A DNA stretch of 50,072 nt, filler included, from Bipalium vagum (taxonomy: Eukaryota): NCBI GenBank assembly GCA_037834085.1. It is 3 parts of 3 records of this genome, joined end to end, with 100 filler letters (N's around TTAATTAATTAA, not from the genome) between each part and the next. Parts side by side here need not be neighbours in the genome. Positions count along the whole stretch, not along the records: positions 1 to 16,927 come from JBBMKC010085840.1; 2 more parts are not named here. One strand, 5' to 3'. The position numbers and the translations under genes are program-made. Each line of letters starts with the position of its first letter. Positions within the stretch are counted from its first letter, which is position 1. The notes below the pieces were generated by a model, which ran no database searches, had not been told where the DNA came from, and was given only the letters and a program-made list of their open reading frames with translations. Positions 3,368 through 50,072 of the stretch are shown here, in pieces.

Positions 3368-4227
3368 ATGATATTCCCTTTTTGTTTCATCCTCCTGTTA
3401 CCAATAATCGATTCAAGCATATTCTACCGTTCTATTAAGAAGTGTATTCCTCCAAATCCAGAAAGACTGGCATTGTCGTCTTTGATCGAATGTGCTGTTC
3501 AATGTCACGTGATCGATTGCACCGATTTCCAATTTCAATCGAACACAATGATTTGTCTTTGGTTTGGATCAGATGAAATAAGTCAAACCAGTCCCAAATG
3601 TTTCCCTGAAACAGTTTTTGTCTCCACTAAAAAATTTTTCATAAAGGTGAGAACAGGTTTAATGAAAAATATATAATCATTTATTTTTAGTCTCACATGA
3701 AAGTAAAAGGTCCTCAGCTTGATTTTTGGAAAAAAATTATTATTGATATTGATTTAAAGGAACATGAATATTCCATAGGCCGAATAAGTGCATCCAGCTC
3801 TTTGATTAAGTTTAAAAATAACTCTGTTCTCATTGTTTTAGGAGTTGAAAGGGATAGCAAGCTATTTATATTGAAACATCCTTTAAACCAATGTCTGATG
3901 AACATGTACCAAAACCAATGTTATCAAGTCCTTAATGAGATAGCAAAGTTCGCAACCAACGGCCTTTGTGTACATTATGCTAAGTGTAGTCTGGATATTA
4001 GAAGACTGACTTCAAAACCTGGGAATCCGAATGTGATTTTTGTTGTTAAGCGGAGAGATACGAGTCTTGCTATTCGTATTGAAGCAATAATGGAAAAGAA
4101 GTGTCACTTGATCTTTGATGGGGAAGTCGAAGGTAGACTTAAGCAAGATGCTCTCAATAGCTACAAAATCTGTCCGTCGTCGGAATTAGTAGAAGAAAAG
4201 ATCTGTCTACTATTGCCTAAATGGTAA
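3368..4227 (+). CDS. Predicted secreted protein (271 aa) with N-terminal PAN/Apple-like Cys domain; exons 3368-3646 and 3691-4227
   Basis: A 44-nt phase-0 GT..TTTTTAG intron (3647-3690) joins the two listed ORFs in frame. Hydrophobic signal peptide MIFPFCFILLLPIIDS. The motif SLIECAVQCHVIDCTDFQFQSNTMICLW fits the PAN pattern C-x3-C..C-x2-F-x-F..C. The C-terminal domain is not recognised. Confidence 0.75.
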
Positions 4228-4399
4228 GATAATGTACAACGAAATCCAATTTATAAAAGAATCAGAAGAAATGGTTCTGTCTAGATCTAGTTTGGAGAAT
4301 ATTCATATTAACACTCATGACATTTCACTTTTTATTTGAATACATTTTTGTTTAAGTATTTTTGTGATCTTTTGTAACAATATTCAATCCTGTTATAAA

Positions 4400-4600
4400 A
4401 GAAGTTTGATATTGGTGGTTAGCCATTATTCTCGTGTATCAATTTTTAAAGACACTCCAAAAGTTTTCAATCGAACGACAGTCGGACATGTATGGAGGGT
4501 TATCATGCTTCTCTACAAAGTTAATATTTTTTGGTAAAAGATATCCTTGTCAAATCTTCTGAAAAGATATGTTGACCATCAGAATGATATTATGTAATTA
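4400..4600 (+). mobile_element. Possible MULE transposase C-terminal fragment
   Basis: A short NRTT..EGYHASLQ reading resembles the MULE RTNN..EGWH motif; very degraded. Confidence 0.25.
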
Positions 4601-4703
4601 AAAAACGGTTTTCAGGATTGATTTTTCATTATTTAACTTGAAAATAAATAAGGAGTAGAAATACTTTCACCAGTTTTGGAAAACATAAATTTTAATTTTA
4701 AAA

Positions 4704-5290
4704 ATGGAGAATGAGATCTTCAATATCAATAAAAAGAGTTTAAGTAAAAAATTTACTTTTCAAATAAAAACAAAAGAATGTCATAAATATTTTCAAATAA
4801 AATTAATTACAGATTTAATTGTAAATGCTGTCACCTAACTCATATTAAAAATCGGAGAAATATTCCAGAAAACAAAATAAAATATAATGATTATCATAGA
4901 AATAGAAATCAAAAAAATCCAATGCTAAAATTTAAACAAAATTTATACTACTTTAAATAGAGTTTTAAAAGAATAAAGAGAATCTAAACATTCAAAAGAA
5001 TTATTTGGATGTAGTTTTGATTTTCTATATGAAAGGTTTTAATTTTATGATGGAATGACATGAGAAAATCAAGGAAAATATTGGAAAAAAAGATCATGTT
5101 TTACAAATTTCAAATTTTAATTTATATAACAAAATACATTTAAATTTTGTAATAACTGAAAAAAATTAAGACCCTTAACTGTTCAAAAGAATTTATCAAA
5201 AAGTAATAAAGTAGATTATTAGCAATATATTTCAAGAAATTAAAAAATATTTTATAAAGAAATATGAAAAAGAAATGATAATCTTTAATA
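4704..5290 (+). pseudogene. HNH/endonuclease VII-like nuclease pseudogene of the type found in large DNA viruses and Polintons
   Basis: Joined frames read FNCKCC...KELFGCSFDFLYERF*FYDGMT*ENQGKYWKKDHVLQISNFNL...FCNN*KKLRPLTVQKNLSKSNK. This matches the LGCS..F..GMTWENYG.W.IDH..P...F.L....C..Y.NLQPL...NLSK family pattern. Confidence 0.75.
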
Positions 5291-5465
5291 ACTTTTTAAA
5301 ACAATTCATTTCCATTATCTTTCAAAAAAACATTATTTCATGAATAAATAAAAATAATAATTTTAAAAACGAAAAACTTTCTGGTTGGAACAAAAGAATA
5401 AATAAAGAATATAGATAATAATAATTTAGTATGTTAGTTTTATATTAAAAATATTCTTTTATAAA

Positions 5466-5759
5466 ATGAATAATTATCTGCAAAATTTTAATAAAATAAG
5501 ACAACATATAATTTCGACTTCTAATGATGAAAGTTTTATTAATTCTGTTAATAAAATTAATGATTATTTATTAATACCTGATAATCTAACCCTATTTAAC
5601 AATAATAAGAAAATCGAAGATAAGGAAAAAAATGCTGAAGAATATTTACAAACAAATTTAATAGAAGTAATGAATAATATGAAAAAAATATCTAAAAGGA
5701 TGTTGTACATTGATCAAAGTCTAGCAGGAGGTTCAAAAGTTATAGAAATACTTAAATAA
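5466..5759 (+). pseudogene. Fragment of an unidentified ORF within the viral element (decayed coding region continues to about 6160)
   Basis: N/K/I-rich open frame of 97 aa among broken frames on the same strand, lying between the HNH gene and the convergent capsid gene. Confidence 0.4.
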
Positions 5760-6464
5760 TATTTACTCAATCAAAGTCATTTAATAAATAATACTCTTTT
5801 TAATGGAATAAATATTGGTAGTATTTATTATTATTTATCTCAATCAATTAAATCATTTAATAAAATAAAAAATTATTTATCTAATGAAAATATACATATT
5901 ATTAAATCAGATTTATATTTTTCAATAAACATCTAAAAACTTGCTTATCAATATCTAAGATTTAGATTACTATCTATTTCTATATATAATTTTGCTATAA
6001 TTAAAAAAGTTATTGAAAAAGTTGTTGCATTTTGGAAATTTTCTGACTTTAACGTTGATTATATAATTTATACCAATCTTCAAAGAGGTGGCTACGACGA
6101 TTATATGTCTTCCGATGAAGATGAAGTTCGGTCTTTAAATGACCATGATTTTGATTAGAGAAATATAATCAAATTAGTTAAAAGTAGTTTCAAGCTGTGA
6201 TACTCTTAAAATCAATATATTTATTACATTAATTAAAAATAGTCTAACAGAATTGTAACTTAATAATTGAATATTTTTAAATTAAATAAATAATTTTTTA
6301 CTCCTTAGTTTATGACGGAATATAAATAATTATTTGTAAGATTATAATTATTAACTAACTATTATGATTTTTAAAGAATAATTGTTTAATTTTTAACCTT
6401 ATTTTAAAAAGTAAATCAAAGATAATTCATAATCATTATTTTAAGCTATCTTTTAAGTTTTATT

Positions 6465-7714
6465 TTAGAGTTTTTGTCTAACTTTTGTTTCAATATTAAA
6501 CATTTTTCCACCTATTATTTTTATTTCCATAAATTTTTCCTGAAACATAACAACATTGATTTTACCTTTAAAATCTGAGTCTTTTAAAATATGTAAAGTT
6601 ACAACTGCAACATTAATACATAAATATTCTGGTTGATCTTATAAATCAAAACAAAATACAGAATATTAATTTTGAAATTCTAATAAACTTAATTGAGGAT
6701 CATTATTAAACTATTTACATGTTTTCACATAATTTGAAGTTCTATTATTTTTATCTTTTTCAAATTTTATAGCTTTTAAAGGATAGAATGAACTATTAAT
6801 TTGAACTCTTAAACTTTTTATTTTATTTTGAATAAACAAATTAATATTTTTATTCAAATTTAATTCTGATTTTCTAAAAGCAATACATATATATATAGGT
6901 TTATTTGGTACATTAAATAAATGTACTGTTTGTGTAGTTCCTTCCGTTAAATATCTTTCTTCACAATGTCTAGATAAAAAATTTATATTTATAGATTTTC
7001 CATCATTTATTCTTGACAAAAGAATTAATTCACTAGATGGTTTTAATTGTAATTCTGGAATAAATAGTTTTAAATTCAATTATGTTGTACCAAGCGTTGC
7101 CGTTTCTCCTTGGAGTTCATAAAATATTTCTATATCAATATCAATTCTTCTTGTAAATATTAATTCTCTTTGCATTTTATAAATTACACTCTTATAATAT
7201 TGTAAAAATCCAAACATTAATTTTAATGGAAATTCTTCTATATGCTTATTATTTGAGTATATATTTTTACTAGTTTTAAATCTTTTATTATCTTTAGTTT
7301 CATTATCTTTGATTTTATCTGGAATCCAATCATATTTGGATTATTATTATTTTTATCAATCATTACAAAATTAGTTATAGAATTTGACGAACCAACATTT
7401 TCAATTGTTTCTATTTCAGTTCAACCTAATTTTAAAGTAGTATTATTAGAAAATAAATATTGAAAGAAGTTATTTTGTTAAGTTATTTTTTTACCATCTT
7501 TCATATCTTGAATTTCAAATTAAAAAGCTAAAATTAATTCTGATAAATCTAAATCATTTACCAATTGTACTAAAGAAAAAGTTAGATTTCCATTAGTATT
7601 TAAGTTTGTTGCAGTTGCAGGATTTATATAAATTTCTAAATACTCACATTTTTAGTTTTTAGATCTTGATGATAGTATTAATAATTAATTGTTATTTAGA
7701 TTTAATTTAGACAT
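6465..7714 (-). pseudogene. Polinton/adintovirus-type double-jelly-roll major capsid protein pseudogene
   Basis: About 1.25 kb from ATG at 7714 (MSKLNL) to TAA at 6465. Motifs NLNTNGNLTF, NNFFQYLFS..LKLG*TEIETIENVG, PLKLMFGFLQYYKSVIYKMQRELIFTR, KPIYICIAF, IKSLRVQINSSFYP and PQLSLLEF..YSVFCFDL*DQPE occur in the order expected for Polinton MCPs. Multiple stops and frameshifts. Confidence 0.82.
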
Positions 7715-7739
7715 TTTTATTAAAAAATTTGAAAAATAA

Positions 7740-8265
7740 AATTTTTAAAAAAGCAGAATGTTTTACACTTTTTTCTTCTAAATTAATAAAAAATAATTAT
7801 TTTGTTCTCTCATATGTAAATTATATAAATAATCAAATTCATCTTTTTCTATAGTACTTACTAACATTTTAGGATATATTTAATCTGTATCTGATTTTGA
7901 AATCTTAAATAAAATTAAAACATTTGCATTATTTCTTATACGTCTTAAAAGTATAATCAAAATATTATTGAAATAAATATATTACTAAACATTTATTATA
8001 CCTTCCGCTTGTAAAATATATTTCAATTATATGTTAATTTTTTTCATTTATTACATCATCAAAAAAAATTAAATCTTTCTTATTTTTTACTAATTTATCT
8101 GGAGCTTGAATTTCATTTGCTTTATCAAAAAATAATTAAATTGTTGTAATCAATATAATATTTTTTTAATAACATATTATATAATAACATTGTTTTTCCA
8201 GACTAATAAGGATCAACAATTAACATTCTAAAATTTTGTGGCAAATTATAATGAATTTTAAATTT
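7740..8265 (-). pseudogene. A32/FtsK-like viral DNA-packaging ATPase pseudogene
   Basis: LPQNFRMLIVDPY*SGKTMLL (degraded Walker A), KDLIFFDDV (Walker B), YFTSGRYNKCLVIYLFQ*YF (degraded GRH..Q motif) and RRIRNNANVLILFK. Confidence 0.88.
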
Positions 8266-8332
8266 TACGTCTCAGGAGGCCCAACTTCGTTTCGCGAAAA
8301 GCTCACTTAAGTTTTACCGACTTCGTCTTAGA

Positions 8333-8790
8333 TCAAACTTGTGTGAGGTGTATAGTAAAACTTATTTCTTCTACATTAAAATTAACTAATTCTATATTAT
8401 TATCAAATATCTTAAATTTTATTTCAGAAATATCTCTTGTAACTAAAGGATGATAAATTGGAAAATTTTGGTCTTTCAATGATTCTATATCCTCTTGGAA
8501 CATTATTCGAAGGAAAATCAAAAATAATATTTTTTCTTCTACCATTATAAAGCCTCCTTCTACAATATTGCAATCAATCACGATTTTATTTATCTTTGAA
8601 ATTTTCACTGTTTTTGATTCAAAAAACTTTTTTTATAAAATTTTTTTAAAAATCCATACAATTCAGCAATTGAATTATCTGGAGAAGAAACAATACAACC
8701 TTTAAATATTCTCATTAAATAGTTTGAAGAAATTGGTTTACCATTAATTTTTATATAATATTCCTCTTATTTTAATGGTTCTCAATTTTC
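8333..8790 (-). pseudogene. Polinton-type minor capsid (penton) protein pseudogene, 5'-truncated
   Basis: DNSIAELYGF..KISKINKIVIDCNIVEGG(fs)NGRRKNIIFDFPSNNVPRGYRIIERP(fs)PIYHPLVTRDISEIKFKIFDNNIELVNFNVEEISFTIHL. This is the typical C-terminus of Polinton minor capsid proteins. Confidence 0.85.
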
Positions 8791-8799
8791 TTAACTCAG

Positions 8800-9503
8800 T
8801 AGATAGATAAGAATGGAGATACAAAAAATCTAAATTCACGAAATCATCTCTAAGCATTCGGACAAACTCTTGGTTGTCCAATTTCAAAATTGCATTGAAG
8901 CACATCATCAGGTGAAAAGTTAAATATGCACCTCAGCTCCAGTTTTCTTAAAGTTGAGATATATTTTAATCGACAAAATTAAATTGCATTATACTAATAA
9001 CCATATTCGACTTAGAGAAAGGGGAATTTTGTGGAATGTGACGAAGTGAAACTCAATTTTAATGTAAATTGAAATCGTGGGAAAGGTCCAAGAGAACAGA
9101 TTTGAGAATAATGAATTTTAGATACTTCAAAAACTCCTTCTAAAGGATTTTGTCAAATCATTTAACATAAGAAAAGTGAAACTATTTGCCTATTATTTAT
9201 AATGTTGTACGTCCAGGATCAATCATAAGCACGGATGAACACAAATCTTATAAAGCTTGCTTTAAAATACGTAAATCAATCCCTAACTCATAAGTATAAC
9301 AACCTGAAACGGTAGTGCATACTCAATACGTAGAAAGTTATCACAATAAGTTAAAATTGCGTATCAAAATGACGAAAAGCATGAACAATGGTAAAAAAAA
9401 CGATTTATTTATCCTTGAATTCGTTTGGCTACATACCTTCAAAGAAAAAACTTTTGAAAAAAGATTGGAATTACTAAAATATGAAAATGTATTGACAAAT
9501 TGA
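8800..9503 (+). mobile_element. Merlin (IS1016/IS1595-like, ISXO2 DDE) transposase pseudogene
   Basis: VECDEVKLNFNV..NRGKGPREQ, LPIIYNVVRPGSIISTDEHKSY and VHTQYVESYHNKLKLRIK..FILEFVW give the D..D..E motifs of ISXO2-like transposases. TIRs were not resolved. Confidence 0.85.
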
Positions 9504-10586
9504 ATTAAATCAATTTTGTATCGTCAGATAAAATTGACAAAATTTGTATCATAAATTCTTTAAGTTAAAAAATAATTTGCCTTAATAGGTATTAAGGTAC
9601 GCTAAAAGTTAAAATACGGTTAGAATTTTAATAATAAACTTAAATTTTTTAGGTTAAAAAAATTGCCCTAATCTTATTTATTAATTGATCCAAGTTTTCT
9701 AATGTATAATATCTTATGTAATATTTTTCTTACAGAACTTATTTTTCAATCATATAAATTCAAATAATTGTGAAATAATTACATATTAGTTTAACATAAA
9801 AATTTTTTATTAAAATACACAATTGCTTATTCCTTATTCGGATAATAAGTTGAATTTTAATTTTTAAAAATTTAAAGTACTTTCTAATTAATCCGAATTT
9901 TCTATTATTATTTATTATTATTATTATTTTGTTGTTATTATTATTTCAATAATTATTCAACCCAGTATATAGAAATAGCACCATAAAACGGTATACGGCA
10001 GAACAGAGATTAAAAGTAAAATCAAACTTTTCATTGTGAAATAAAAGGTTGAATATATAAAAACACCTTACGCATGAAATGATTTCAGAAACATTCAATT
10101 TATTGCTACATGAACCGTCATTTTCACAAATGAACAATGCGTTGCCATGAAGATTTCGTAGCGGTTAACGGAAACTGACATATTCACATTCGATATAGTG
10201 ACAGGCACAAACGTGTTGACAATTTTTACAAAGATATACATTCAGTAAAAATCTCATCATTGAAAAATAAACCTTTTTATATATAACAAAAAGAAACATA
10301 ATTTCCAAACGTCTTTCAGGTTTCAGCCAAGTATGGGTGAATTTCCTTTTTTATCACTAATGTAACATCGATATTTTTATGGTTTACAGCTGAACGATGT
10401 TTTAAGAAGAGGTAAGGTTTTGAAACAATTCGTTAAACAAAAATCAATAACACTTAAAGAATATTGATTTATCGATTTTATGTCAAAAGTAAAAAGCATC
10501 CAAATTCTAAAAAGTTTTCCGAATATTGCCAAAATGAAAGAGATGTCTCTTTGAAAAGATCCTTAAAGATTTCCTTAAATCTTGAA

Positions 10587-13500
10587 TTACATGGTCGATT
10601 TAATAACCCGATATGAGAGTTCTGATTCAAGATGACCATCATTTATTAAATTGTAATGCTGAGAATCATTGAGCTCGTCTTCATCATTCATTGTCAAATA
10701 GTTGTCAGATTGACCGAGTAATTTAGATTTTTGATCTGAATCAATATCTTGAGATGAATCTTGTATGTGATTTTCGTGTGAAGGTGAGACATATTGATCT
10801 GAAGAAATGAAAAGTAAAATCAAATAAATTATTATTAGAATCAAATAGAAAATCAATATGATGTTAATGGTTATTATCTAAACTACGGTAATATAGTTGA
10901 GTTCTTATCCTAATCAGTCTCTCAGACACACCTTTGGTAAACAATAATCTAGCAAGATATGGCTCCAGTTAGATAAACAAAATCCACTTCCTTCAAAACA
11001 ATCAATATGTAACAGACATACTGAACTAATTTTCTAAGATCATAACAAAAACGAAAAACACCAAAAGGAACATCTAAAATTCGATTATCTCTTCAACCAT
11101 CGATTTCAAGTCAAATGGTCAATTTCTACATTTTAATAATTAATTATTTTGCTTAATCTGTTTTTCCGGTAAATATTAACTTAAACAAAAATCAATCAAA
11201 TTCAATAATATTTGTTAATCTGTTCAGTATTATCGAGAAGAAATTCGATAATACAAAAATATATTTCAAAAACAATCTTTCGTTCCTGCTCTGATTATTT
11301 AAACAATAATCATTAATAAATTTAATTATTTCTATTTCATCCCCTCTCAAAGAAATCGTTTTAGGTTTTCCTTTCTTAGCTTCTTCATGTTGTATCTGAC
11401 ATTGAGTGGCCTATCCATTTACGGTACTCTAATTGAATATGTCAACTGCTCAAATAATTGATTCACGTTTGGAACTGGGACGTGATTGGCTTCTTTGGGC
11501 TTAGGATAAATGTAATGGCCTTGTGGTCTCTTCGTAATAAAAATTTAATATATTTAAAATTTAATATTGTGATTAATATATTTATAATTAATTCTTTAAT
11601 TTTCAGAATTTAAATATTTATTTAAAAAAATTAAATTAATTAGTTAAAAATAAATTACAGTTTAAATATTTATTTAAAGATTAAATATAAATAAAAAAAT
11701 TAAAAATATTTTTTATTATCGAATAATTATTATTATTTATTATTTTTTCCCTATGATTTAAACCACAACAAAAATATCTAGAAATCACAAAAATATAATT
11801 AATAAAATTAAATTATAATCCAAACATTAATCCTATTACCAATGGTTATTTGTTAGAGAATTTTAAGATAGAATTTTGATAAATTTTTGAATAATTTTTA
11901 TTTATACAATATAGCTACTTATTAATTGTAAGTAGATAACCTGAATTCTTGGTATACATTATATATACATTACGTCGCACTATGGTTATTTTTCCGCTCA
12001 TAAAGAGATGCAACAATCAAATTATGTAAAAAATAAATGGAAAATTATATTCAACCTTGACTTCTAAATGTTTTGTTTGAATTTTTCACTGGTTCCAAAT
12101 AATCATCAGTGTTGGTGATAACTGATTGATGATCATTAACATTAGTCTTCACTGGTTCCAGATAACCATCAGACTCTTCATTAATTTTACTTGTTTGAGA
12201 TATATGGTGATTCTTGGATTCTTTGATAATGTTTGGAGATGTTTTAGTCTCATTAAATAATGGACTTTGGATTTGTGGAGATCTGATCTTTGGAGATATA
12301 TCTGTTGGATCAGATACATACCGCGGGATCTCATCATTGATATTTGACTGATTACCATTCATACTTCTTAATTTTGAACTATTGCTGTGGCTATTGTTGA
12401 CAGAGTTTGGTGAGTGACCTAATTATTATCATAATATTTATTTCGTAACAGATTGGACGAACTTACTATTTTCGTGAAACATTTTAAATATATTGTTAAT
12501 CTTATTAGTCGTTCTGGTCGGAAGCATATCTTTATCAGACATTGAGTAGAACAAATGAGGTGAATTATGATCAGGAGATATTTTTTTCATATCAGAATCT
12601 ATTGAAGTATTACCATTACTGAGAAGAGGTATTTCGGTCTCTTTATTCTTTGAATCTAAGTCGAATTGGAATCCAAAATAATGATTATTTAAATTCGTCA
12701 TTTCAACATCAGCAGGAGATGGAATTTCATAAGGATCACCCTAATAAAATACAGTTTAGTTAAATATTACTAAAACGAGAGACTTGAGAGGAGGATTTGT
12801 TTATTTAAAAAATTATCGATTAACGGAAATATTAATAAAATTATGAAAAGGTACTTAGATAGAACTTAATTGGACTGTAAATCGTCATAGTTATAATACC
12901 ACCTGTTAAAAGGAAAATGTAATTTAAATATATTTTAATTAAAAAATAGAAGACAAAAAATAAATAGACAATATTTTCAGAAAGGAACAAAAAATATAAG
13001 TGATAAACTTTAACAAAGCTAAACCAGTTTTTATTTCTAATAAAAAACCCCACGTAGAGTAATATTAAATTATAATTAATTATAACCAGGAAATTATTCA
13101 ATCATGATTAATTAATAAAAACGTTACTATTTTCACAAGCAATCTAATCAATTCAACGAGAATTAGGAAAAATAATCAAATTTATCAAAATATTCCTTCC
13201 CTTTTCTCAAATCAAACATTTCCTGCATTCTTAAGCAATATTATTTTTCAATAACAAACCATATTCCTTTTATTTCAGATTTAATAATAAAAATAAATAA
13301 ATAAAATCACGAGGTTTGTTGATATTTTTGTGGAAGTTGATTAAATATATAATCACCACTTTCTGTTGTTTCTTTTCAATCAATGTAATAAATCTGCCGA
13401 AGAAAATCGATTATTTTGCAGAAACTTATGGTGATGGAACAATAGCCGAGAGCTTTTTCAAATAGCTTAGATGCTTTAAATGCAGTGATATTGATTTAAA

Positions 13501-16500
13501 GGAAAGAAAATTTGACTTAGTCTAGGAAGAGTTGACGAGAAGATTGCATGTTAATCAGAGAACTGTACTTCGGTGATTGTATCAGATGGGAAAAATTTTG
13601 AACAGTATGATCAACCGATTCACAATTTGTCTTTCGCATCTTCGTAGACTTGAACATGTCTTTTTGTTTAGAATGGAACAGTACACGAAAAGTGGACATA
13701 TTATTATAATTTCAATAGGAAAAGATCTTGGAGAACTAGGATCTTTAAAACGATAAGGAAGTATTCATAATCACAAGATGAGACATACAGGGAGTGCTTT
13801 ATTATGAACTATTTATTAGGTGTACAACTATGACTCCGGCTTTTTTTTAAAATGATAATAAATTTTGTTTTGCATATATATCGAAATTAAATTGAATTGG
13901 TTTATAAACAAAAATATCATATAAAATAATAATATCACGAGATAGTTGTTTTAATATTCCTTGTTTAAATATTATAACGATTCAAAATGTCAATATTCAT
14001 CCCAAATAAACGACATTTGCGGGAAGTAATTCTACATTACTTTATTTCCAAGAAAACTGCAGTGGAAGCGGAAATTTTTTACAATGAATGTGAAAATAAA
14101 TGGGTACTTGTTTAATGTCTACCCACAAAGATAACGCCAGGACGTAATCTGTATAATATATAGACACACCAATTTAAAAAAAATTATCTACCAACAAATA
14201 TTTTTTTAAAAATATTTTTACTCTTTTGTGAGTAGATATTAGACAAGTTCCAAATGTTCTATTGAATCTTGAGAAGAGTTACAAGTTTCCTGAAACATTC
14301 TTAATGTTCTCTTTTCACTTATCTTATTTCCTCCAATTATATCAAATGATACAATCATAATAAAACTTATTAGACATTTCTGCTTTTATAAAACAGCGTC
14401 AAATCAAAATTAAACATCTTGACTCAGGGTTTATTATATTTCACCCCTCAAATGTATATTAAGATTCTCAAAACTGCTTTATGCGACAGAAAAGCGTAAA
14501 TTTGAATACCCAGATGACACTGTTGTAAAGAAACTCATTATTTTCGAATTATGCCTCACATATAAAATGACTTCTATGGTATAGCATCTCCCCCGTATTT
14601 TGATTGGCTCGCAACAATCGAATAATTAAGACCAAAATTAAGATTAATCAAAAATTAAAACTGATCAAAGTTGTCAATATTATTGAGATGGTTCATAGTT
14701 TTTATTGATTTTTGCATTACATGAGACTTTTTGAAATAATTTGTAGGTCTCTTAAATTGCACAAAGAAAGATGAACACTACTTAACGAAGCACAAGAACA
14801 TCGATATTGGGATTCCCAAAAATGGAATCTCCAAAGATATATATAAAAATTGAGAAAATACAAAGCGATTTATCCGAATATTTTCAGACAAATGCATCCA
14901 TATCAACGAGACAATATCCCAAGACAATTGAATCGTTTGATTACAGGTTCAGAAGGATTCAATTTGCTGAATGGTTACACCAGAATTTTTTTAAATATGT
15001 CATCATATTTGTGATTATTTAAACAAGCATTTAATATATTTTTAATTATAATTTCATTATAATTTTCCATATTTTTAATATATTACTTGATTCTGGTTCT
15101 AGTCGAGACGAAGAATCATGGTATCTTTTTTGCCATCAGTATAGTTCACAACTGAACCCGATTGAAGAGATTTCTTGTGTTAGGAAAGAAAATATCAGGC
15201 TACAGAATTGTAAACATACCACAGAACTTATGGCTGCCAATAACTTATTTCCAGGATAATCACTAACACTCGGTTCATGGGTTTCTTTCAGTACATGAGT
15301 ATATTTTAAATCAAAGCTATGTCAAAAGAAATGTTTTAAATAAATGTTGATCCATATTATATAAAGTTATCCGTCAATTAGTTACTTATCTAATTTAACA
15401 TTTATTTTTGAGTGACCTATAAATTATTTCGAAGATCGAATGTAGTTCGTGCCTATGACAGGGTGTAATTTGCCATGTAGGAAAAATCTATATGTTTCAG
15501 GTTACATGTAATACGGTAAAGTTAAAATAATTTTAACAAATCACTTCTCTTTCCTTAATCTGAGGATATGACTTTTCCAGATATTATTGTTTATTACTTC
15601 AAAAAGGGAAACACGCAGCCGAAACATTTAGAAAGATGAGCAATAATAACGGAAAAGGCTGAATGTTTCAAAATGGTTTACAAAATATAGTTCCCGGGAT
15701 ATCCGCATTTTTCTTCTAGATCATACCATGTTTGGAAGAGATTCTGTTATATTTTTATAAAAAGGTACGATATCAAGACTCCACGTGTATTATCGAATTT
15801 TTGGTCAATAAAATTGAAATGAGTAAATTTTAATAAAAATCTTTACAAAGATGTGCATAGAAAAATAAATGGTATTGAGAACGGTAACAGCTCTAAAAGT
15901 AGAAGATAGTAAAATAATATTTTTGATGAGATTGGTCGAAGTCTGAGCTCAACTACACAAAATTGTATAATTTGATAGCAAAGGTTGAAGAAAATCACCC
16001 AGTTAGGCCAAATAAAATTAAGGTGATATTTCAAAGAGATCATGCAAGATTATACAGACCTGTTAGAACTCCTCATAAATTACACTATGTTTGACGATAA
16101 CTGCTTATACACCCTGCATATTCTCCAGATATTGCATTTTCCTATTATAACTTGTTTCGATCGATTCAGGACTATTTTAATGGAAAAGAGATCGGATTTT
16201 TGATGATTCTCAAACTAGAATGTTTCAGATTCTCTTAATTATTAGGTATTAATTCTACGAGGGTGGATTTATACAGCTACTTCATAGATTCAGATAATTA
16301 ATGACAAAAATGACCAAGACATATATATATCCTCATCCGTGTTTAAATTCATGTATGGATAAGAATTAGAATAGGCAAATAAAAATCTGGTAATAAATAA
16401 TATATTAATAATAAATATTATTATATTATTAATTAATATTTAAATAAATAAAAAGGATGATTACATCATTAAGAATAATAACAAAAACATTACTTACTTT

Positions 16501-16786
16501 AATGCTTAAATATCGACCAGGATTTTTACAATATTCCACAAAAGTTCTCATTAAGCTTTGAAAGTCTGGTCTCAGATTTGGGCTTTCCAACCAGCCTAAT
16601 TGAAACAAATAATTATATGAATATATTCAAAACAATTACAGTTGATCATCACGATGTAGACATCCAAAGAGCAGATTTCAGGCTGCATCAGCCTCCCTCC
16701 TTTCATCACGAAATCAAAAATATCATGAGTAGGCTGATCTTCATACGGTATTTTGCCAAATGTAAATATTTCCCATAGTGTTACGC
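10587..16786 (-). CDS. EGFR: EGFR/ErbB-family receptor tyrosine kinase, 3' part; exons 16786-16640, 16595-16498, 12740-12467, 12418-12056, 10798-10587
   Basis: Spliced translation GVTLWEIFTFGKIPYEDQPTHDIFDFVMKGGRLMQPEICSLDVYIVMINC|WLESPNLRPDFQSLMRTFVEYCKNPGRYLSIK|GDPY aligns to the EGFR kinase C-lobe ([45 protein letters not shown]), with introns at the positions I recall for vertebrate EGFR. The tail contains RYVSDPT (EGFR RYSSDPT). All intron phases are compatible. Upstream exons are lost at the contig join. Confidence 0.9.
11370..11535 (-). mobile_element. Ty3/Gypsy RNase H C-terminal fragment in the last EGFR intron
   Basis: DHKAITFILSPKKPITSQFQT*INYLSS*HIQLEYRKWIGHSMSD resembles TDHK.L....W...L..Y...I.YRKG..H..AD. 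Confidence 0.65.
13816..14070 (+). mobile_element. Mauritiana (Mos1-like) mariner 5' fragment
   Basis: TA followed by TTAGGTGTACAACTATGA (Mos1-like TIR). ATG 13987 gives MSIFIPNKRHLREVILHYFISKKTAVEA, resembling the Mos1 N-terminus MSSFVPNK..LKKTAAE. Confidence 0.75.
14700..15340 (+). mobile_element. IS630/Tc1-like transposase remnant
   Basis: RRIQFAEW segment and FLP.YSSQLNPIEE motif near 15125-15170; heavily degraded. Confidence 0.55.
15560..16330 (+). mobile_element. Degraded mariner transposase remnant
   Basis: N-terminal KG.HAAET and C-terminal LIHPAYSPDIAFSYYNLFRSIQDYFNGK..FYEGGFIQL readings. Confidence 0.7.
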
Positions 16787-16865
16787 CTATTAAGTAAAGG
16801 ATAATTAAGATTTCGATCATTAAAAAAATTTGATTTATTATTATTTTTTTTTATTATTATTGTTA

Positions 16866-16867
<2 letters not shown>

Positions 16868-16927
<60 letters not shown>
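16868..16927. repeat. (TTA)n microsatellite running into the contig end
   Basis: Directly visible. Confidence 0.95.
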
Positions 16928-17027
16928 NNNNNNNNNNNNNNNNNNNNNNNNNNNNNNNNNNNNNNNNNNNNTTAATTAATTAANNNNNNNNNNNNNNNNN
17001 NNNNNNNNNNNNNNNNNNNNNNNNNNN
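16928..17027. other. Artificial contig spacer (44 N + TTAATTAATTAA + 44 N)
   Basis: Symmetric N runs around a 12-mer with stops in all six frames; genes on both sides are truncated here. Confidence 0.92.
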
Positions 17028-17368
17028 TGTCCTTACCACAACGTTGGCAACAAGTAATCGACAACAATGATCATTATTTCTGTGATTAAAATAAATATTT
17101 TGATGTTAGAACTTTGAGTTTTATTTTTTTTCCACAACCCAATAGTAGCGCAAAATATAAAATATTGATTTATTATTAATAATGAAATGATAAATATTAA
17201 TTAATTAAAACAACAATCCATTTTCATAACCTATGCTTTAATTGGAAATGACTTATGAAATACCCTATATATTTTGTGACCGGTGTGGGTTAAGAAAATT
17301 AAAACTCACAAAAAACAATAAAACCTGTTTATTGAATTTACTCGAAAAAAAAACAAGTAGAACCATAC

Positions 17369-20300
17369 ATTTCGCGATTTGATGATTTGCATGGTTGATC
17401 GAACTTTGTCCGATTTGTTGTCATGACTGAAAGAAGAAGCGTAAAGCGATGAATTGCTGGTGCTGCGTGCATTGGATCTATATTGTACTGGGCAATCGAC
17501 GCTGTCGCTACTGGAAGAGAACTGAGAACCGGACGAACTTTCGTTTTTTCCATCAGTTTTGCTCTCTTTAGAAGACTTGGACGCATACTGTTTATAATCC
17601 ATATCGATGAATTGCAGTTCGAGTGGAGGAACATCGCCAGTTTTGTACTTTTGGACGAGCAATATTGCATCCTGTAAACAGCTCAAATGTCACTAGAAAC
17701 TGGGAATAAGAAACTTGATTTTATTTCAGAAGATATTGTCATACTTTAGGAATTTTTAATTTAAAAATTCGATAAAAACTCAATGAAGTGAAAATATTTT
17801 AATTAAAAAAATTGAATAAAATCAATAAATTTTAAAAAACAAGAATTAAAAATCGATTTCTGAAAATTTCCTTTTTGTTGAGAAATAAATAAAATTATGA
17901 AATTGAAACTTGTTGACGTTAATGTGGCGACCACCGATTAATGAAAAGACGTTGTTTAAGCAAATGACTCATTTCTACCTTATCAAAATATTTTATTTCC
18001 CAAATAAGATATTAATAGACCACCAAAAAACTATTGAATTTTTAAAAAAAAAATTAAATTGAAAATAATTAAATAATGAATATTGTTTTAATTTATACAT
18101 TTTATAATAGTAAAAATCTGTTGATAAAAACTTTTGATATTTCTGTACAAAAATAATAATAATTAACCAATAGAAAAAAAATTCAATCAAGTTATGAACG
18201 TTTCTAAAACCATTTTATCTAATACATCCATTAAAAAAAGATACAGTGCTCCAACTAATTATTGCCGCACTTTGAAAATATAATAAATCTTCGATTATTG
18301 TACTGTGCATGAAATATTTGTAAGATTTTAAATAACTTTTGGCTAACTAATCAACTATTTACTTAAAATAAAACTGATTTGTTATAATATATCAGATAAT
18401 TAATTCCAACTAATTTAAAAGTGAAATTATTTAAATCTAATTACAGTAACCGCTCGATATAAGCAATTTTTCGATATAAGCAAAAATTATTAATTTATTT
18501 ATTTTTTAATAATTCTAAGTCTATTTGATTAATATTTATTTATTTACATAAATTAAACGTTCGAAGATTAAATATTAAATTTAAGTACTTCTGTCTGTCG
18601 AATACTAAGATTTTATAAAAAAAATTATTTAGTAAGATGAGTAAAATTGCAAGATTAACCGACACTGAGAAGGGAATGATCTATGTCTACCACGACACCG
18701 GAAAATCTAACAGCTGGATCGGCACTAAGTTAGGGAAGAATGAAAGTAGTATAAGATAGTTTTTGAAGAATAAAAATAAAGAAAAGAAGACATGGGGTCC
18801 TAAGGCGAAGATTTCCGTAGCAACGAAGCCTACCATTATTAGGAATACCAGCAACCAAAGCATAACCTGTGCGAAAATAAAAACGCTATTCAACCGAAAT
18901 TTGTCCATAGAGATTATTAGAAAGATTTTAAATAAATCTGGGACGATCCGGTATAAGATGTTGGTAAAACGACCTTTGAAGCCACAGCATAAAATCAATC
19001 GTGTCTACTGGGCTAAAGAGAAAATGTCGTGGGTCATCGAATGGGACAAGGTCATCTGGAATGACAAGAAGAAGTTTAATTTGGATGGACCTGATGGTTA
19101 CGCATATTACTGGCACGATTTGCGGAAGGAGGAGATATCTTTTTTGAATAGACACACTGAAGGAGGTTCCTTGTTGATTTGGGGTTGTTTCAATACCACA
19201 GGAAGTCGACTCTCGCGATTTTAACCTGCAGGCTAAATCAATTTGTTTATCAAATGCTTTTAGGAGAACATTTACTTCCCTTTATGAATGATTTTGGCGG
19301 AGACAAATTAATTTTCCAACAGGATAATTGTCGATGCCATGTTGCACATTTCACTTCGAAATGGCTACAAGACAGAAATATTGATGTTATGTCTTGGCCA
19401 GATGTTATATCACCAGACCTGAATCCCATAGAAAATCTTTGGGGGATACTAGCACGTCGGGTATATGTTAATGGGTAACAATATGAATCCATTTCAGAAG
19501 TGGAACGAGAGTTAATTCGCTGTTGGGAAGAAATCGATAACAGCGTCTTTTGTAAATATGCGGCAATCAATTATTGGTATTTTTTTAGTTAATTTTTTTT
19601 TAAAAATTTTCGTATATATATACATTAATAGGATGGATATATTGTTATATTATTTATATATAAATATTAATAACTTTGATAGCTTCTACAAACAAAAAAT
19701 ATGCATTTTCTTAGTGTGGCAATAATTAGCACTGTATTAAACGTTTTCAAGGGTCCAGTTTATTTTCATTTAAATTTAGTACATGATTGTTCAGGCACAA
19801 CATTTTATAATATAAATTATGAATAAAACCCATACGTTCCCATTCATTTCAATAGACTCAGATCTGGTCTGACACAAGGTCATTTCAGTTTATTGTAAAA
19901 ATAAATTCTTCGATCTCCAGAGGGTAATAAAATCAACAGGGCACTTTGGAGTTTTTGATTGCACTATAAATTCAAAGTCTCACGATGTACTTAGTAGAGT
20001 TATCAATTGTAAAAAAAATTATTCAGTCTACAGTTGCCTACACGCTAAAACCAACTACCAATTTCAAAGATCTTTGAGTTGATTTATTCCTGATTTAAAG
20101 ATTTACCTTTTTGAATTCAATTTGATATTTTTAAATAAATAATTAAAAATACAAAAATTTTTCTTTCTAAGTAAATCTCGAAGGTAAATTTTGAATTTAA
20201 AAATTTTTACATTAGACCAATTAAAAATATTTTTTTAAATAATTAAAAATTAATAAATTTAATTAATAAAATATTAATTTATAATAATTAATAATATTAA

Positions 20301-29207: not shown

Positions 29208-30836
29208 TAAAAATTATTTCAAAAATCCAAGTGCTAAATTGTAATTTAAATCGTTTTATTTGATAGTTAATATAATTACAGGTTTAAACAAATAACTATT
29301 TCCTGTATGATAATTGTTAGTTTTATTCTTGATAAATTAAGTAATAATAACATGATGATCTCATTTTTATATCACAAATATAAAATATATTAAAATATGA
29401 GTGAAATATTAATTTATTTTACTTTGACTTTCATTCATATTTATTTAAAAGATTTTTTTCCAACAGGCACTGAAGGAAAATAAATTTTTTAAGAAATTCT
29501 TTTCTTATTTATATATAATTAATTTGTAATAAGAATATTATTGAAAACTACCTTTGTAAAACTAAAAATATATGTTGAAATAAATTATCACAAAATAAAA
29601 TCTGTTACTCTTATTATTTATTAATTTTTAAGAATTAAAATTATTATAATAAAAAAATATTTTTTTAAAAATTCAATAGTAATATTAAGTAATAATAATC
29701 AATCATTATTAATAAGTTTTACATACTAATAATTAATATAAATATAATAATAATAATCAATAATGATATTAAAATTTTAAAATCAATTCAAAATATATTT
29801 CATTCTGAATTAAAAGTCAATAGTGTAAATTTGAATAGATTTTCTATAATCGTATAAAATACAGGTATCGAACTAAGTTTTTTCGTTGTTTAATTAAAAA
29901 CTAAACTAAGACTGAAGTTAAATTTGTTGGGTTTACCCAAAACACCCACCTGTTCCAAAGGAAAATGGTAAAAGGGTGCTCAAAATAATAATAATAATAA
30001 TAATCATTATGAAATTGGGCCCAAAAGGACAAAATAATAATTATAATAATAATGCTAAGAATAATAATTAAATAATAATTTTAGCTAATTAAAAGGACAA
30101 AAGTTAATTAAAAACAAAAGAAGGCAATAAATTATATTTTTTTGGATCTAATCTTGACAATGGCGAACCTAAATTGGCAAGATTAGATTAGAGTCCGTGT
30201 TAAGATCCTAAGTTGATAGACAAAAGGTTTGAGCGTAAATGTGTCTTAGGTCTCAACGGTTGAAGGTTGCTTAAGGTTGTGTTCGAACTAATTAAATGAA
30301 CTGAGAAAACGATTTTCGGTTTAATACTTTTATTTGAATTAATATCAAAATTATTATTATAATTACAATGAGTGATAACAATCCTAACCGATTATTGATT
30401 TTATTAATTGTAATTATTAATTATAAAAATCCTCTCGCTCTTAGGCTCAGAGGTCCTGGATTAAGAAAAACAAATATATTTCAAATATATTTATTCATGC
30501 ACAATAAAATTTCGCAAATGACAGTTTTTCAAAATAAAGTTTCAAATCACAAAGTATAACAGATATGAGGGAAAGTTTAAAAGTTATAGAGAGTTATTGT
30601 TAAATCTTTTTTTTAAAATCACAAATTGGTTGATCCACTTGACTTTGACTTCTCTGCAGAATTTGGGCGTAGTCTCCACATCCACAAGGAGGGACCGATT
30701 TAGTATTAATGGTCCTAAAAGGGAATTGATATTTCCCATTAATAACATTGGTCTACGACTCATTAGTCGTCGACCAAAATACTGTATATGGAGAAGGATT
30801 TCTCCATAATTTCGACCTCGACTGGAAACAGTTATT

Positions 30837-30953
30837 TCGATTGTTGAAGACATAATTGTTGAAGACTCGATTACTGAAGACTTAATTGTTGAAGACATAA
30901 TTGTTGAAGACTCGATTACTGAAGACTTAATTGTTGAAGACATAATTGTTGAA
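30837..30953. repeat. 45-bp tandem repeat (about 2.5 units) built from 15-bp subunits; encodes MSSTIKSSVIESSTI on the minus strand
   Basis: TTGTTGAAGACATAATTGTTGAAGACTCGATTACTGAAGACTTAA is exact at 30841-30885 and 30886-30930, with a partial third copy. Confidence 0.9.
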
Positions 30954-31604
30954 AAATCAAGATGAAAGACGTATTTGTTGATTGCTGAAAACGTGATTGT
31001 TGAAGACTTATTTGTTCGAGCCTTATTTGTTGAAGCAGACTTTACCGTTGAAATGGGAAGAAGATTTGGTTATTTTAAAGAAGCAGATTTGAAACACAAG
31101 TACGTTAATAAAATGACCTTGTTCCTGGGATCGTGTTTGTGTTCCCCACCAGAGGGCTACTTCTGAGCAACTAAAAAGGTTCAGCTAATAGTTCAAGAAG
31201 CTTAAACGAAGCTAATCTGTAACCTCGTTTATTTTATTTTTTTCCTTATCTTAACAGTTTACTTTATTATTAATATAATTATTAATTAATTATTATTATA
31301 ATTCGACTATTGAATCATTTAAGTATTTATTTTGTTTTAATGGGTTTCATTTTATAAACCTTTTGTACTTGATTGATTATTAAAGACAATTGCTTACATT
31401 TCAGATCTTATTGTGATCCCTTTTTCTCTTGAGTTTGACGATTTTTGTGTAACTGTTATCACTGTGATTTCGTGTGAAGTTTATGTTATAACTACAAGTT
31501 TTGGTTTGCTGATTGTTATTATTGTTGCACCATCTAAGAGTCGAAGTCAGATTTAACGTTTGATACACTAGTTAGTGAAGTCATTTTCACTTCAGTGAAG
31601 GTGT

Positions 31605-32190
31605 TTTTAATAAACAAAATTGTTGAATTTAGGCAGGAAATCAACCCTATGTTTTCAAGGAAGAAGCTTTACATTCGCCAAAATTTACTGTATAGTGTGG
31701 AATATGGGCAAGAGGTGTAATTGGTCTATACTTTTTCGAAAATGCTGCAGGTAAAACAGATACAGTAACGGAAGAGAGATATCGTCACATGATAGAAACA
31801 TTCCTTAAGCCTTATCTGAATGATTTTAATGTGGAGAATACTTACTTTCAGCAAGATGGTGCCACATCCCATACAAATAGGAAAACAATTACATTATTAC
31901 ACGAAACTTTTCCACCTGGCATGATCTCACGTTTCGGTGATGTTGATTGGTCTCCCAGATCTCCCGATTTGACGGCTCCAGACTATTTCTTATGGGGATA
32001 TCTAAAAATAAAATTTATATTAATCAATCTAAAACTATTACACAACTCAAAGACAACATTTCCGAACAAATCTCTATGATCTCAATTGAAGTATGCCAAA
32101 ATGTTATGCAAAATTCCATAAAATTGCCAAAACCCATATGGTTGCAGGAGGTGGCCATTTTAATGACATCATATTTAAAATATAAAATAT
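31605..32190 (+). mobile_element. rosa-type (DD41D) Tc1/mariner transposase 3' fragment
   Basis: FQQDGATSHT...SRFGDVDWSPRSPDLTAPDYFLWGYLK; I count 41 residues between the second and third catalytic Asp. Confidence 0.85.
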
Positions 32191-32629: not shown

Positions 32630-32729
32630 NNNNNNNNNNNNNNNNNNNNNNNNNNNNNNNNNNNNNNNNNNNNTTAATTAATTAANNNNNNNNNNNNNNN
32701 NNNNNNNNNNNNNNNNNNNNNNNNNNNNN
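32630..32729. other. Artificial contig spacer (44 N + TTAATTAATTAA + 44 N)
   Basis: Identical structure to 16928-17027. Confidence 0.92.
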
Positions 32730-34350: not shown

Positions 34351-35927
34351 ATGCAAAAATTAATTTTTATTTTCTTTATTTTTTTTAGTGGTAATTATAA
34401 TTGATTTACTGCATAAATGAAATAACGTTTTTCAGCTGCGAAATGCACATTTGGTCAAGAAAATGAAAATGAAAAATCGACCATAACGAGTTCATCCACA
34501 AAATACAGTTCAACGACAAAGAAAATTGAAACGACTACAACTCCTACTCCGAGCACAAGTAAAAGCTCGACTTCACATTCAAAATCTTCAAAAACTACCG
34601 TCACTTCGACTCCAACCATTACAACAACCCATAGTTCAAAGTCATCCTCTCCGACTACAAAATCTTCAGCAACTACCGTCACTTCGACTCCAACCATTAC
34701 AACAACCCATAGTTCAAAGTCATCCTCTCCGACTACAAAATCTTCAGCAACTACCGTCACTTCGACTCCAACCATNNNNNNNNNNNNNNNNNNNNNNNNN
34801 NNNNNNNNNNNNNNNNNNNNNNNNNNNNNNNNNNNNNNNNNNNNNNNNNNNNNNNNNNNNNNNNNNNNNNNNNNNCCATAGTTCAAAGTCATCCTCTCCG
34901 ACTACAAAATCTTCAGCAACTACCGTCACTTCGACTCCAACCATCACAACAAGTCATGGTTCAAAGCCATCCTCTGAGACTACAAAATCTACAACTACAA
35001 CGCTTACTCCGTCTCCATCTGTCACGACAAGTCATGGTTCAAAGCCATCCTCTGAGACTACAAAATCTTCAACGACAACGCTTACTCCGTCTCCATCTGT
35101 CACGACAAGTCATGGTTCAAGTTCTTCTTCAGGTACTACAAAACATTCAACAATAACAGTCACTTCGTCTGCATCCATCACAACAATCCATAGTTCAAAT
35201 TCATCCTCTCAGACCACAGAATCTTCAAAGACAACACTCACTCCGTTTCCATCTGTCACGACAAGCCATGGTTCAGATTCTTCCTCAGCTACAACAGAAC
35301 ATTCAAAACCAACATTAACTTCGTCTTCTTCTGTTGAAACAACCACAATTCATCATGAGGTAATTCAAAATTGAAAATATTATTAAATGTGAGTTCGGCA
35401 CAACTGAATAAAATAAAAACAATAATATTTTTTTATTATTAAAAAAATTCATTATATCATTTTATAAACGTTTTATCTATTCCTTTGTCAGACGTTCCAA
35501 TTGGTTTGAGTATAACCAATTTCTCGAACCTCAAATTCAGTAGGATTATTATTTTTCATATTTTTCACAAAACATTTTTATTCAACATTTTTTTAAAAAT
35601 CTTAGAAAATTTTTTCTAAAAAATTAAATAATTCAAAAATTTTATATTAATAATAATTCATTTAATTCAGAAAAAGACCGAAATTTTTGATTGGTGGAAA
35701 ATTGCTGTAATCATAATAGCAATAATTGTATTCATCCTAATCACCATAATTGCAGTATGTTGTATGTTAAAGAGGAAGAAAAGGTATTCCTTTTTCGATA
35801 TTATATTTATATTATTTTTTTTAGAATAATTGTCAGTAGCACTGCGAATTATGGTAGTATCAGTGAAGAAGTGAAAGTCGATATCGAAACGGGACACGTG
35901 AAGAAAAATTCCAAGAAATTAATTTAA
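34351..35927 (+). CDS. Mucin-like type I transmembrane protein A; exons 34351-34390, 34436-35359 (N gap 34776-34875), 35671-35783, 35825-35927
   Basis: Signal peptide MQKLIFIFFIFFSAAKCTFG, Ser/Thr-rich 26-aa repeats, TM exon KKTEIFDWWKIAVIIIAIIVFILITIIAVCCMLKRKKR, and a short tail with NYGSI. GT-AG introns have phases 1, 0, 2. Confidence 0.85.
34594..35330 (+). repeat. 78-bp coding tandem repeat (TTVTSTPTITTTHSSKSSSPTTKSSA), degenerating toward the 3' end; copy number unresolved
   Basis: Unit starts at 34594, 34672 and 34750; a 100-N gap lies inside the array. Confidence 0.9.
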
Positions 35928-37857: not shown

Positions 37858-38860
37858 TTATTTCTTATAAGCATTATTTGGATATCCTTCTTCCCCTTGA
37901 AAGTTGACATCATTTGACAGGGTATTGAATTGAGCCGTAAAATTCCTTGAATCACTTTTATAAAAATTTAAACAGTAATTATAAATAATAATAATAAAGT
38001 AAAATACTGCTTTTTTTTCAAAAAATAGTAAATTAAGAAAGCAACCAAAGCGACCACTACTATTACACAGACAACGATTACAGCAATAGCCCAGTCTGGA
38101 AATTTTTTCTAAAAATTAAATATATTTTATTTGTTTATTATCAATATATCATTAATTGTGAAAAGAATTGTAAAAATTGATTATTATTAAAAAAATTATT
38201 ATTATTGTGACGAAAATATTTACTGAAGGAGTTGTTGTTGGTGCAAATGTAGTTTGGGAGGTGGTGAATGTGCTTTGGGAACCATTTGTAAAATATTCTC
38301 TCGTAGTTACATCAGTATTAGTTATTGGTGCAATTGTAGTTTGGGAAGTGGTAAATGGGCTTTTGTTATCAGTTGTAATATATTTTGTTGCAGTTCCATC
38401 AGTATTAGTTGTAGTTTGGGAAGTGGTGAATGGGTTTTTGCTACCAGTTGTAATATATTTCGTTGCAGTTCCATCAGTATTAGTTGTAGTTTGGGATGTG
38501 GTGAATGGGCTTTTGTTACCAGTTGTAATGGTCGATGTTAAGCTGCTTTGGGTTGTAACGCTTGGGCTTGGACTACTAGTAGTTCTAACGCTGGAAGTTA
38601 AACTGGATTCTGTTATAACACTTGTAATTTCGTCCGTCCTAGTACTGCTTGTAGAGGACGTTTCTGAACTTATTTCAGATAAAAGATTATCGGGTGATGG
38701 TTTTGATTGAGGTAAATCACCGTTACCATTAAATATTGAATGTTGTCCTCGTATGTTATAGGGCTGGAAACAAACAAAACCTTAATTATAATAAGAAAAC
38801 AAATAAATAATAACAAAATCAGTTACCGAAAATAACAAAGACTATGTAAGACTTGATCAT
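37858..38860 (-). CDS. Mucin-like type I transmembrane protein B; exons 38860-38827, 38780-38224, 38108-38008, 37954-37858
   Basis: Signal MIKSYIVFVIFGFVCFQPYNIRG, S/T-rich ectodomain with 25-aa repeats (ITTGNKSPFTTSQTTTNTDGTATKY), TM exon KKFPDWAIAVIVVCVIVVVALVAFLIYYFLKKK, and tail ..GEEGYPNNAYKK*. Fully open after splicing, phases 1, 0, 2. Confidence 0.88.
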
Positions 38861-49085: not shown

Positions 49086-50072
49086 CTGAAAATATGATCA
49101 TAACAATTTTTCTTAGACAATAAAATAAAAAGTGATATTTTGATTTAAACAAACAAATCTTGAATTTTTGGTTCATTTTTAAAAGAAATTTTATGGAATA
49201 GATTTAAAAGTATAATAAACAGTTTTTACCCATTAAAAATTTACATAGTACAACGTACTATGCTAAAATTAAGACGTAGTTGATAAGTTGTGGACGATGT
49301 AATTTTAAAAATAAATTACCATTACACTGCTAAATCAATGGTTCACGAATCCCTTATCTCTAAATCAAATTAAAATAATTTATCATAAGATTATCATACA
49401 TTTAATACGAGCGATGTCTTTTCGAAAATACAAATTATATAACCATAATGAATAAAAAGAAACAAAAATAATCCGAAAAATTATATATTCATTACATATC
49501 TCCAATGCTTGATTTTTGCTAATTTTTTCTCTGGTGTTGGGATGTTTACAATTAGTAAGAAAAACAAAGATCATTTCTTTCAAAATTTGTCATTTCATTT
49601 TTTAATTCAAGCAACTCTTTTCAGAGGATCGCTTCAACATCACCTACAGTGGATATAAATGTACTAATCGTCAAGAAATAACTTGAAAAGGTTTTAGAAA
49701 GTCTATTCATTTTAATTTTTTATAATAGATATTAAGTTAACTTAAAACACAACCAAGCAGATGCCGACTGGTTTTTTCTACCTAAGAACGTAACCATAAT
49801 ATCTTTAAAAATCTTATTTTCAAAAAATATCTGGTTATCTGAAAGTTTTTGGAAATACCCAACTGTGTGATTTATCTGGAAATTCATTTCACTTCAGATA
49901 TTAGTTACCTTTCTAATAATAATTCGGAAAATTTCTTTCAACATATACAGTTGCCGCCAAAAGTTTAGCATATTCACAAAATTAATGTTGTTTGCATGTT
50001 TTAATGTCATAGTGATGAAATACTATCTGTATATAAATGTTTTATTGATTTTATAGATAGATAATCATTTAT

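Follow-up and report, generated by a model that had tools for sequence, protein, structure and literature searches.

A dead, truncated Maverick/Polinton fragment from Bipalium vagum, likely one copy of an abundant family

A 50,072-nt stretch of the Bipalium vagum assembly GCA_037834085.1 (filler included; hereafter the window) is likely to hold a Maverick/Polinton remnant, dead and truncated, with broken capsid, ATPase, penton and endonuclease genes, one of what are probably hundreds of copies in the host genome. Because its relatives carry genes for pPolB (a DNA polymerase B of the protein-primed type), an RVE integrase, PLA2 and pX, the stretch is classed by sequence as a fragment of a Maverick/Polinton (adintovirus, Polintoviricetes). 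It probably belongs to group 2 of these elements, and the window copy is predicted to make no working protein. The broken genes were laid out from a six-frame reading of positions 4200-9600 (Table 1).

Table 1. Genes of the Polinton fragment and the transposon remnant beside it
Feature	Positions	Strand	Remarks
Broken endonuclease VII (His-Me finger) homologue	4704..5262	+	Matched part 4804-5261; start 4704 taken from first ATG
Broken reading frame	5466..6158	+	231 codons, 3 stops, acidic end
Major capsid (double jelly-roll, Polinton PY/hexon) pseudogene	6474..7714	-	Nearly full length, two frames, frame change near 7340
A32/FtsK-type packaging ATPase pseudogene	7826..8268	-	Three frames
Minor capsid (penton) pseudogene	8336..8778	-	Covers just profile positions 107-257 of 257; lacks the 5' part
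Merlin-like (IS1595-family DDE) transposase remnant	8813..9480	+	PF12762 E 8e-6, 26.3 bits, just under cut-off 27

The major capsid pseudogene contains 9 stops in 412 codons. With X written at the stops, its larger piece matches the Pfam double jelly roll family PF21738 (E 2.2e-15, 57.1 bits against a cut-off of 27). Among 1.84 billion representative proteins, the same piece retrieves 185 matches at E values up to 0.001, including 8 up to 1e-30. The best of these is P0007, an intact relative that is identical to the larger piece at 143/289 residues (49%) and to the 5' piece at 34/83. A structure model of P0007 (pLDDT 92) is matched by Foldseek to double-jelly-roll capsids in BFVD; none of the 50 matches listed is above 14% identity to the model, and named adintovirus relatives may still exist. 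The profile score above its cut-off and the fold of P0007 together identify a double-jelly-roll major capsid of the Maverick/Polinton type. The window capsid does not fit the description of Polinton-like viruses (Aquintoviricetes) or virophages, whose capsids have little similarity to those of animal Maverick-Polintons, and it retrieves Polinton-type capsids of aphids and a beetle by sequence. A word-indexed search with the broken capsid yielded 0 relatives among 554 candidates, a PDB sequence search gave chance matches only and scans of IMG/VR with the capsid found no relatives. The window contains one copy of the capsid gene.

The packaging ATPase is recognised through related proteins. The Pfam Pox_A32 profile gives a match to the window pieces that is weak on its own (E 0.012, below cut-off), and the pieces are 57, 54 and 44% identical to metagenome A32 ATPases that are positive for PF04665. 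It is this identity to PF04665-positive relatives that marks the gene as the A32/FtsK packaging ATPase of a Maverick/Polinton. An internal stretch of ~65-80 residues is missing near 8130, where the window has ~13 residues compared with 79-95 in all four relatives measured, and a stop lies inside the Walker A region. An IMG/VR scan with a related ATPase found no relatives. One metagenome locus has an ATPase frame of 528 codons (L024:1560-3143, plus strand).

Only the 3' 60% of the penton gene, encoding the last ~150 of ~257 residues, is present; the first ~105 residues are gone. The minor capsid piece has no match in Pfam. Its segment 8611-8336 is 27-31% identical to a protein of 253-263 residues that occurs in five metagenome loci, and a penton profile weakly extends the match to 8778 (position 107 of 257), with 6.3 bits compared with a maximum of 3.5 in 100 shuffles. 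A model of the relatives' protein, built from 5 sequences (pLDDT 71.5), has the mavirus penton as its best structural match (Z 10.5, 211 aligned, rmsd 8.0). The pentons of Sputnik (Z 9.3) and adenovirus are also among its top six structural matches, and minor capsid proteins are matched in BFVD. Through the fold of these relatives, a single-jelly-roll penton near the capsid gene can be recognised, as in other Mavericks/Polintons. The truncated gene adjoins a transposase frame, starting at 8813, which is not part of the Polinton and for which no terminal repeats were found. Merlin is the name used for eukaryotic IS1595-like elements.

Two broken genes lie on the opposite strand. The matched part of the first corresponds to L005:4586-5188, the gene next after the capsid gene in metagenome locus L005, whose protein belongs to the endonuclease VII family phrog_1035 (E 1.7e-14). 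The second has no homologue in Pfam, PHROGs, protein or Atlas searches. A Pfam match of this frame to CheD (E 0.01) was rejected as not credible. To judge from its position and low GC, the frame is probably cargo of the element. GC content in the gene block is 17-24%, compared with about 25-37% to its left. An intact 176-codon frame of 33% GC lies directly left of the element (3697-4227, plus strand) and has no Pfam, PHROGs or Atlas match; it may be a host gene, cargo of the element or something else. In a control with 50 shuffles, the best tblastn scores of the four genes (247, 64.7, 48.9 and 52.4 bits) compare with shuffle maxima of 21.9, 23.1, 22.7 and 29.6 bits.

These results bear out most of an earlier note made from the sequence. 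It had described minor capsid, A32 ATPase and major capsid pseudogenes in tandem on the minus strand, and their place, strand and order are confirmed, as are the plus-strand genes said to converge with them (now a broken endonuclease VII homologue and the 231-codon frame) and the Merlin remnant. Its Polinton/adintovirus assignment and gene identities hold in Pfam, in matches to relatives and in predicted folds. The jelly-roll capsid and A32 matches on which that assignment was said to depend are found in the capsid profile (E 2e-15), the penton fold of relatives and the ATPase identities (44-57%). The note had also seen no pPolB, integrase or adenain-like protease. With queries from relatives, genes for pPolB, integrase, a protease-like protein, pX and three unnamed proteins were not found anywhere in the 50-kb window.

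No termini bound the fragment. There are no terminal AG/AGT motifs, inverted repeats or 6-bp target duplication, and on the right side the copy is cut inside the penton gene. An inverted pair of segments lies at 184-408 and 9679-9928 (256 nt, 71% alike, E 2e-25). It was rejected as the possible ends of the element: the arms are AT-rich, lack AG/AGT ends and also enclose unrelated mariner and Merlin-like remnants. They are probably two copies of a dispersed repeat.

The missing genes are found in relatives. Scanning JGI metagenomes with a capsid alignment produced 199 pattern matches, from which 24 loci were obtained. In L001, pPolB lies beside a related capsid gene; this frame (L001:3-4211, minus strand) has 1,403 codons and an N-terminal zinc finger. 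L005 carries RVE integrase, PLA2, pX, A32 ATPase and endonuclease genes, L003 carries PLA2 and RVE integrase, and pX is found in L005, L007 and L013. The PLA2 domain and RVE integrase of L005 are fused in one frame (L005:5191-6513, minus strand). Short ORFs in L001, L013 and L017, which we take to be proteases by motif, have no Pfam match. Since the window copy is linked to no ends, target-site duplication, polymerase or integrase, the autonomy of its parent rests on relatives at 38-49% capsid identity. The gene order of the window (penton > ATPase > capsid) occurs in none of the four loci that have all three genes (L005, L013, L017 and L024). The pX gene is common in these loci and is not seen in the window.

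Two trees describe the position of the capsid. One is a 103-row FastTree of rows of 330-500 residues plus 9 locus frames, with 4 near-duplicates dropped, and the other is a quick 43-row IQ-TREE. In both, the capsid from the window has P0007 and P0175 as its sisters (SH-aLRT 99) and falls inside a 19-row clade (support 99); the 18 other rows are from assemblies in ENA, JGI or Logan and carry no organism names. Organism-named members occur in 2 of 30 clusters looked up and are from aphids and a beetle. These named insect capsids are 26-31% identical to the window piece and lie across a branch with support of 100. By sequence, the window capsid thus sits on a distinct branch among the capsids compared; since the Repbase and adintovirus reference sets were left out of the trees, this distinctness does not show novelty. 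The sublineage is possibly unnamed.

Among described systems, the nearest in gene content are the group 2 Maverick-Polintons/adintoviruses with the Mayetiola-class (Alpha) virion module, which (PMC8502044; bioRxiv 10.64898/2026.06.19.733378) resemble the window in having a double-jelly-roll capsid, a penton and an A32 ATPase. The PLA2, pX, RVE integrase and pPolB genes of this group are shared with the window's relatives and not with the window copy, which lacks pX/PLA2, protease, polymerase, integrase and termini and differs in its order of penton, ATPase and capsid genes. The 'double jelly roll-like' proteins of aphids and a beetle belong to the same Pfam capsid family, PF21738, as the window capsid, which is set apart from them by its low identity and its separate, well-supported branch. 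The unnamed metagenome Polintons P0007, P0175, L004, L005 and L001 are closer, with capsids 36-49% identical to that of the window, and L005 also shares the penton, ATPase and endonuclease VII genes. They differ in having mostly intact frames and another gene order.

Polintons are already known from flatworms. Four of the 72 elements listed in Table S1 of PMC4028283 are from Schmidtea mediterranea (Polinton-1_SM, -2_SM, Polinton1_SM and Polinton2_SM). All four have penton and ATPase genes and three are marked for a capsid gene, a likeness to the window in gene content. Planarian Polintons are described as silenced piRNA targets (PMC8532177), and bioRxiv 10.1101/2025.04.19.649669 reports Orthopolintovirales insertions in flatworms. 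No study of planarian Polinton capsid lineages was found in the literature searched; supplements outside that search may bear on it. Degradation is also familiar, in that most genomic copies of vertebrate Mavericks are mutationally degraded and have no discernible termini, like the window copy (PMC8097293). These elements are from other hosts, and their conserved eight-gene architecture is not comparable with the window.

Copy number was approached through contigs from one public run of unrecorded type, which holds 0.35 of the sampled words and may itself be the source of the window. Contigs were placed on 6300-9600, the right part of the element with its flank. In total, 4,623 contigs are placed: 308 are at least 99% alike to the window, 820 are 95-99%, 1,695 are 90-95% and 1,800 are under 90%, so that 3,495 are under 95%. 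Summed depth is 1,337-72,058 in all 22 bins over 6411-8852. It is 145-324 in the 6 bins over 8853-9518 and 343 in 6300-6410, just past the end of the capsid gene. A 562-nt contig identical to the flank at 9039-9600 has a depth of 22.5, and the gene block thus stands at 60 to 3,000 times flank depth. Summed depth adds up contigs and does not measure copy number, and other organisms may contribute to it; it is therefore read only as the sign of a high-copy family, whose copies probably number in the hundreds. Depth rises again to 1,372 at 9519-9600, near the 9679-9928 repeat arm.

The contrast between summed depths of 1,300-72,000 and a flank contig depth of 22.5 makes it likely that the window holds one dead copy of a high-copy family rather than a solitary old insertion. 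Counting 13 stops in 648 codons gives an estimate of 0.07-0.13 changes per site (95% range 0.04-0.22), or ~7-13% decay, which agrees with the 80-95% likeness of most contigs. One 348-nt contig that is ~85% alike to the window has a depth of 443, ~20 times that of the flank contig, and this suggests near-identical young copies or free DNA. The earlier note's description of an old germline integration thus understates the case: the sequence behaves in this run as part of a very high-copy family, and its decay is moderate. No RNA run containing the stretch is listed among public runs.

The shape of the depth profile raises an unlikely alternative, namely that the amplified unit is itself a non-autonomous or split Polinton. 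Its capsid-ATPase-penton module would lack a polymerase and depend on a helper or partner segment in trans. Depth is high only over 6411-8852 and falls on both sides, just 6 of the 4,623 contigs cross the ends of 6300-9600, and the compact gene order without pX is unlike that of all four three-gene relatives. However, the right depth drop coincides with the point where the penton gene is cut at a foreign transposon, and is therefore not a natural element end. Intergenic bins within the block also dip (to 1,337 and 2,033), and neither terminal AG/AGT motifs nor inverted repeats are present at its edges.

If a Polinton-like virus had integrated just once, long ago and by accident, and had never multiplied in the genome, this would account for the lack of ends and integrase in the window, for the one copy in 50 kb and for nearest proteins that are environmental. 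Thousands of diverged contigs at far above flank depth make this very improbable, as do the integrase-bearing Polintons among its relatives and the moderate decay. Least credible is an origin of the deep signal, or even of the fragment, in a symbiont, in prey or in a free virus co-sequenced with the animal. In its favour, run type and library are unrecorded, the closest relatives are metagenomic and none of the contigs listed spans the whole stretch. Against it, the window copy is riddled with stops, no gap separates it from the transposon remnants and the spliced kinase exons of animal type that enclose it, and the contigs range widely in divergence, as in a repeat family.

If the window holds a dead copy of an amplified Polinton, its relatives and what is established about Polintons allow its history to be sketched. 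The parent would have measured 12-20 kb, with pPolB for its replication and an RVE integrase for its insertion. The capsid, penton and ATPase would serve to assemble an icosahedral particle and fill it; the gene for endonuclease VII would be a passenger. After insertion, the ends and enzymes may have been lost by deletion and by the neighbouring Merlin-like insertion. The copy would then have decayed neutrally to about 0.07-0.13 changes per site.

A dead Polinton copy alone matters little, since degradation is usual among Mavericks and Polintons have already been described from planarians. This one serves as a pointer: it links a capsid clade, of which the 18 other members in the tree are metagenome sequences without a name, to the genome of an animal. 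It also draws attention to a very abundant family in which some copies seem to be young. A bolder proposal, which we regard as distinctly doubtful, is that an animal, probably a flatworm, is host to an unnamed Polinton branch known so far only from anonymous metagenome contigs, and that a penton-ATPase-capsid module with no polymerase multiplied there to hundreds of copies. Young copies would remain, and the module would be a satellite or half of a split virus genome. If a capsid module does spread without a polymerase, this would bear on the use, if any, that animal Polintons make of their capsids.

The window as a whole is ~75% AT and contains tyrosine-kinase exons (PF07714) and mariner remnants. 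One mariner remnant lies at ~900-1800 on the plus strand (PF17906, PF01359), and two more Tc1/mariner-like frames, recognised by eye, are at 18760-19480 and 31696-32079 on the same strand. The runs of N at 16928-17027 and 32630-32729 surround a 12-nt all-frame stop linker and are artefacts. At 44574-49097 (minus strand), 1,507 codons form one uninterrupted frame, which is rich in Ser, Lys and Asn and has no Pfam match. Ser/Thr-rich repetitive frames resembling mucin-like stalks occur at 34426-35374, 38152-38781 and 30584-31069, with repeats of 75-78 nt and 15 nt. The kinase exons, at ~12050-17700 on the minus strand, encode a receptor-type tyrosine kinase (PF07714) with a Tyr-motif tail, presumably EGFR-like.
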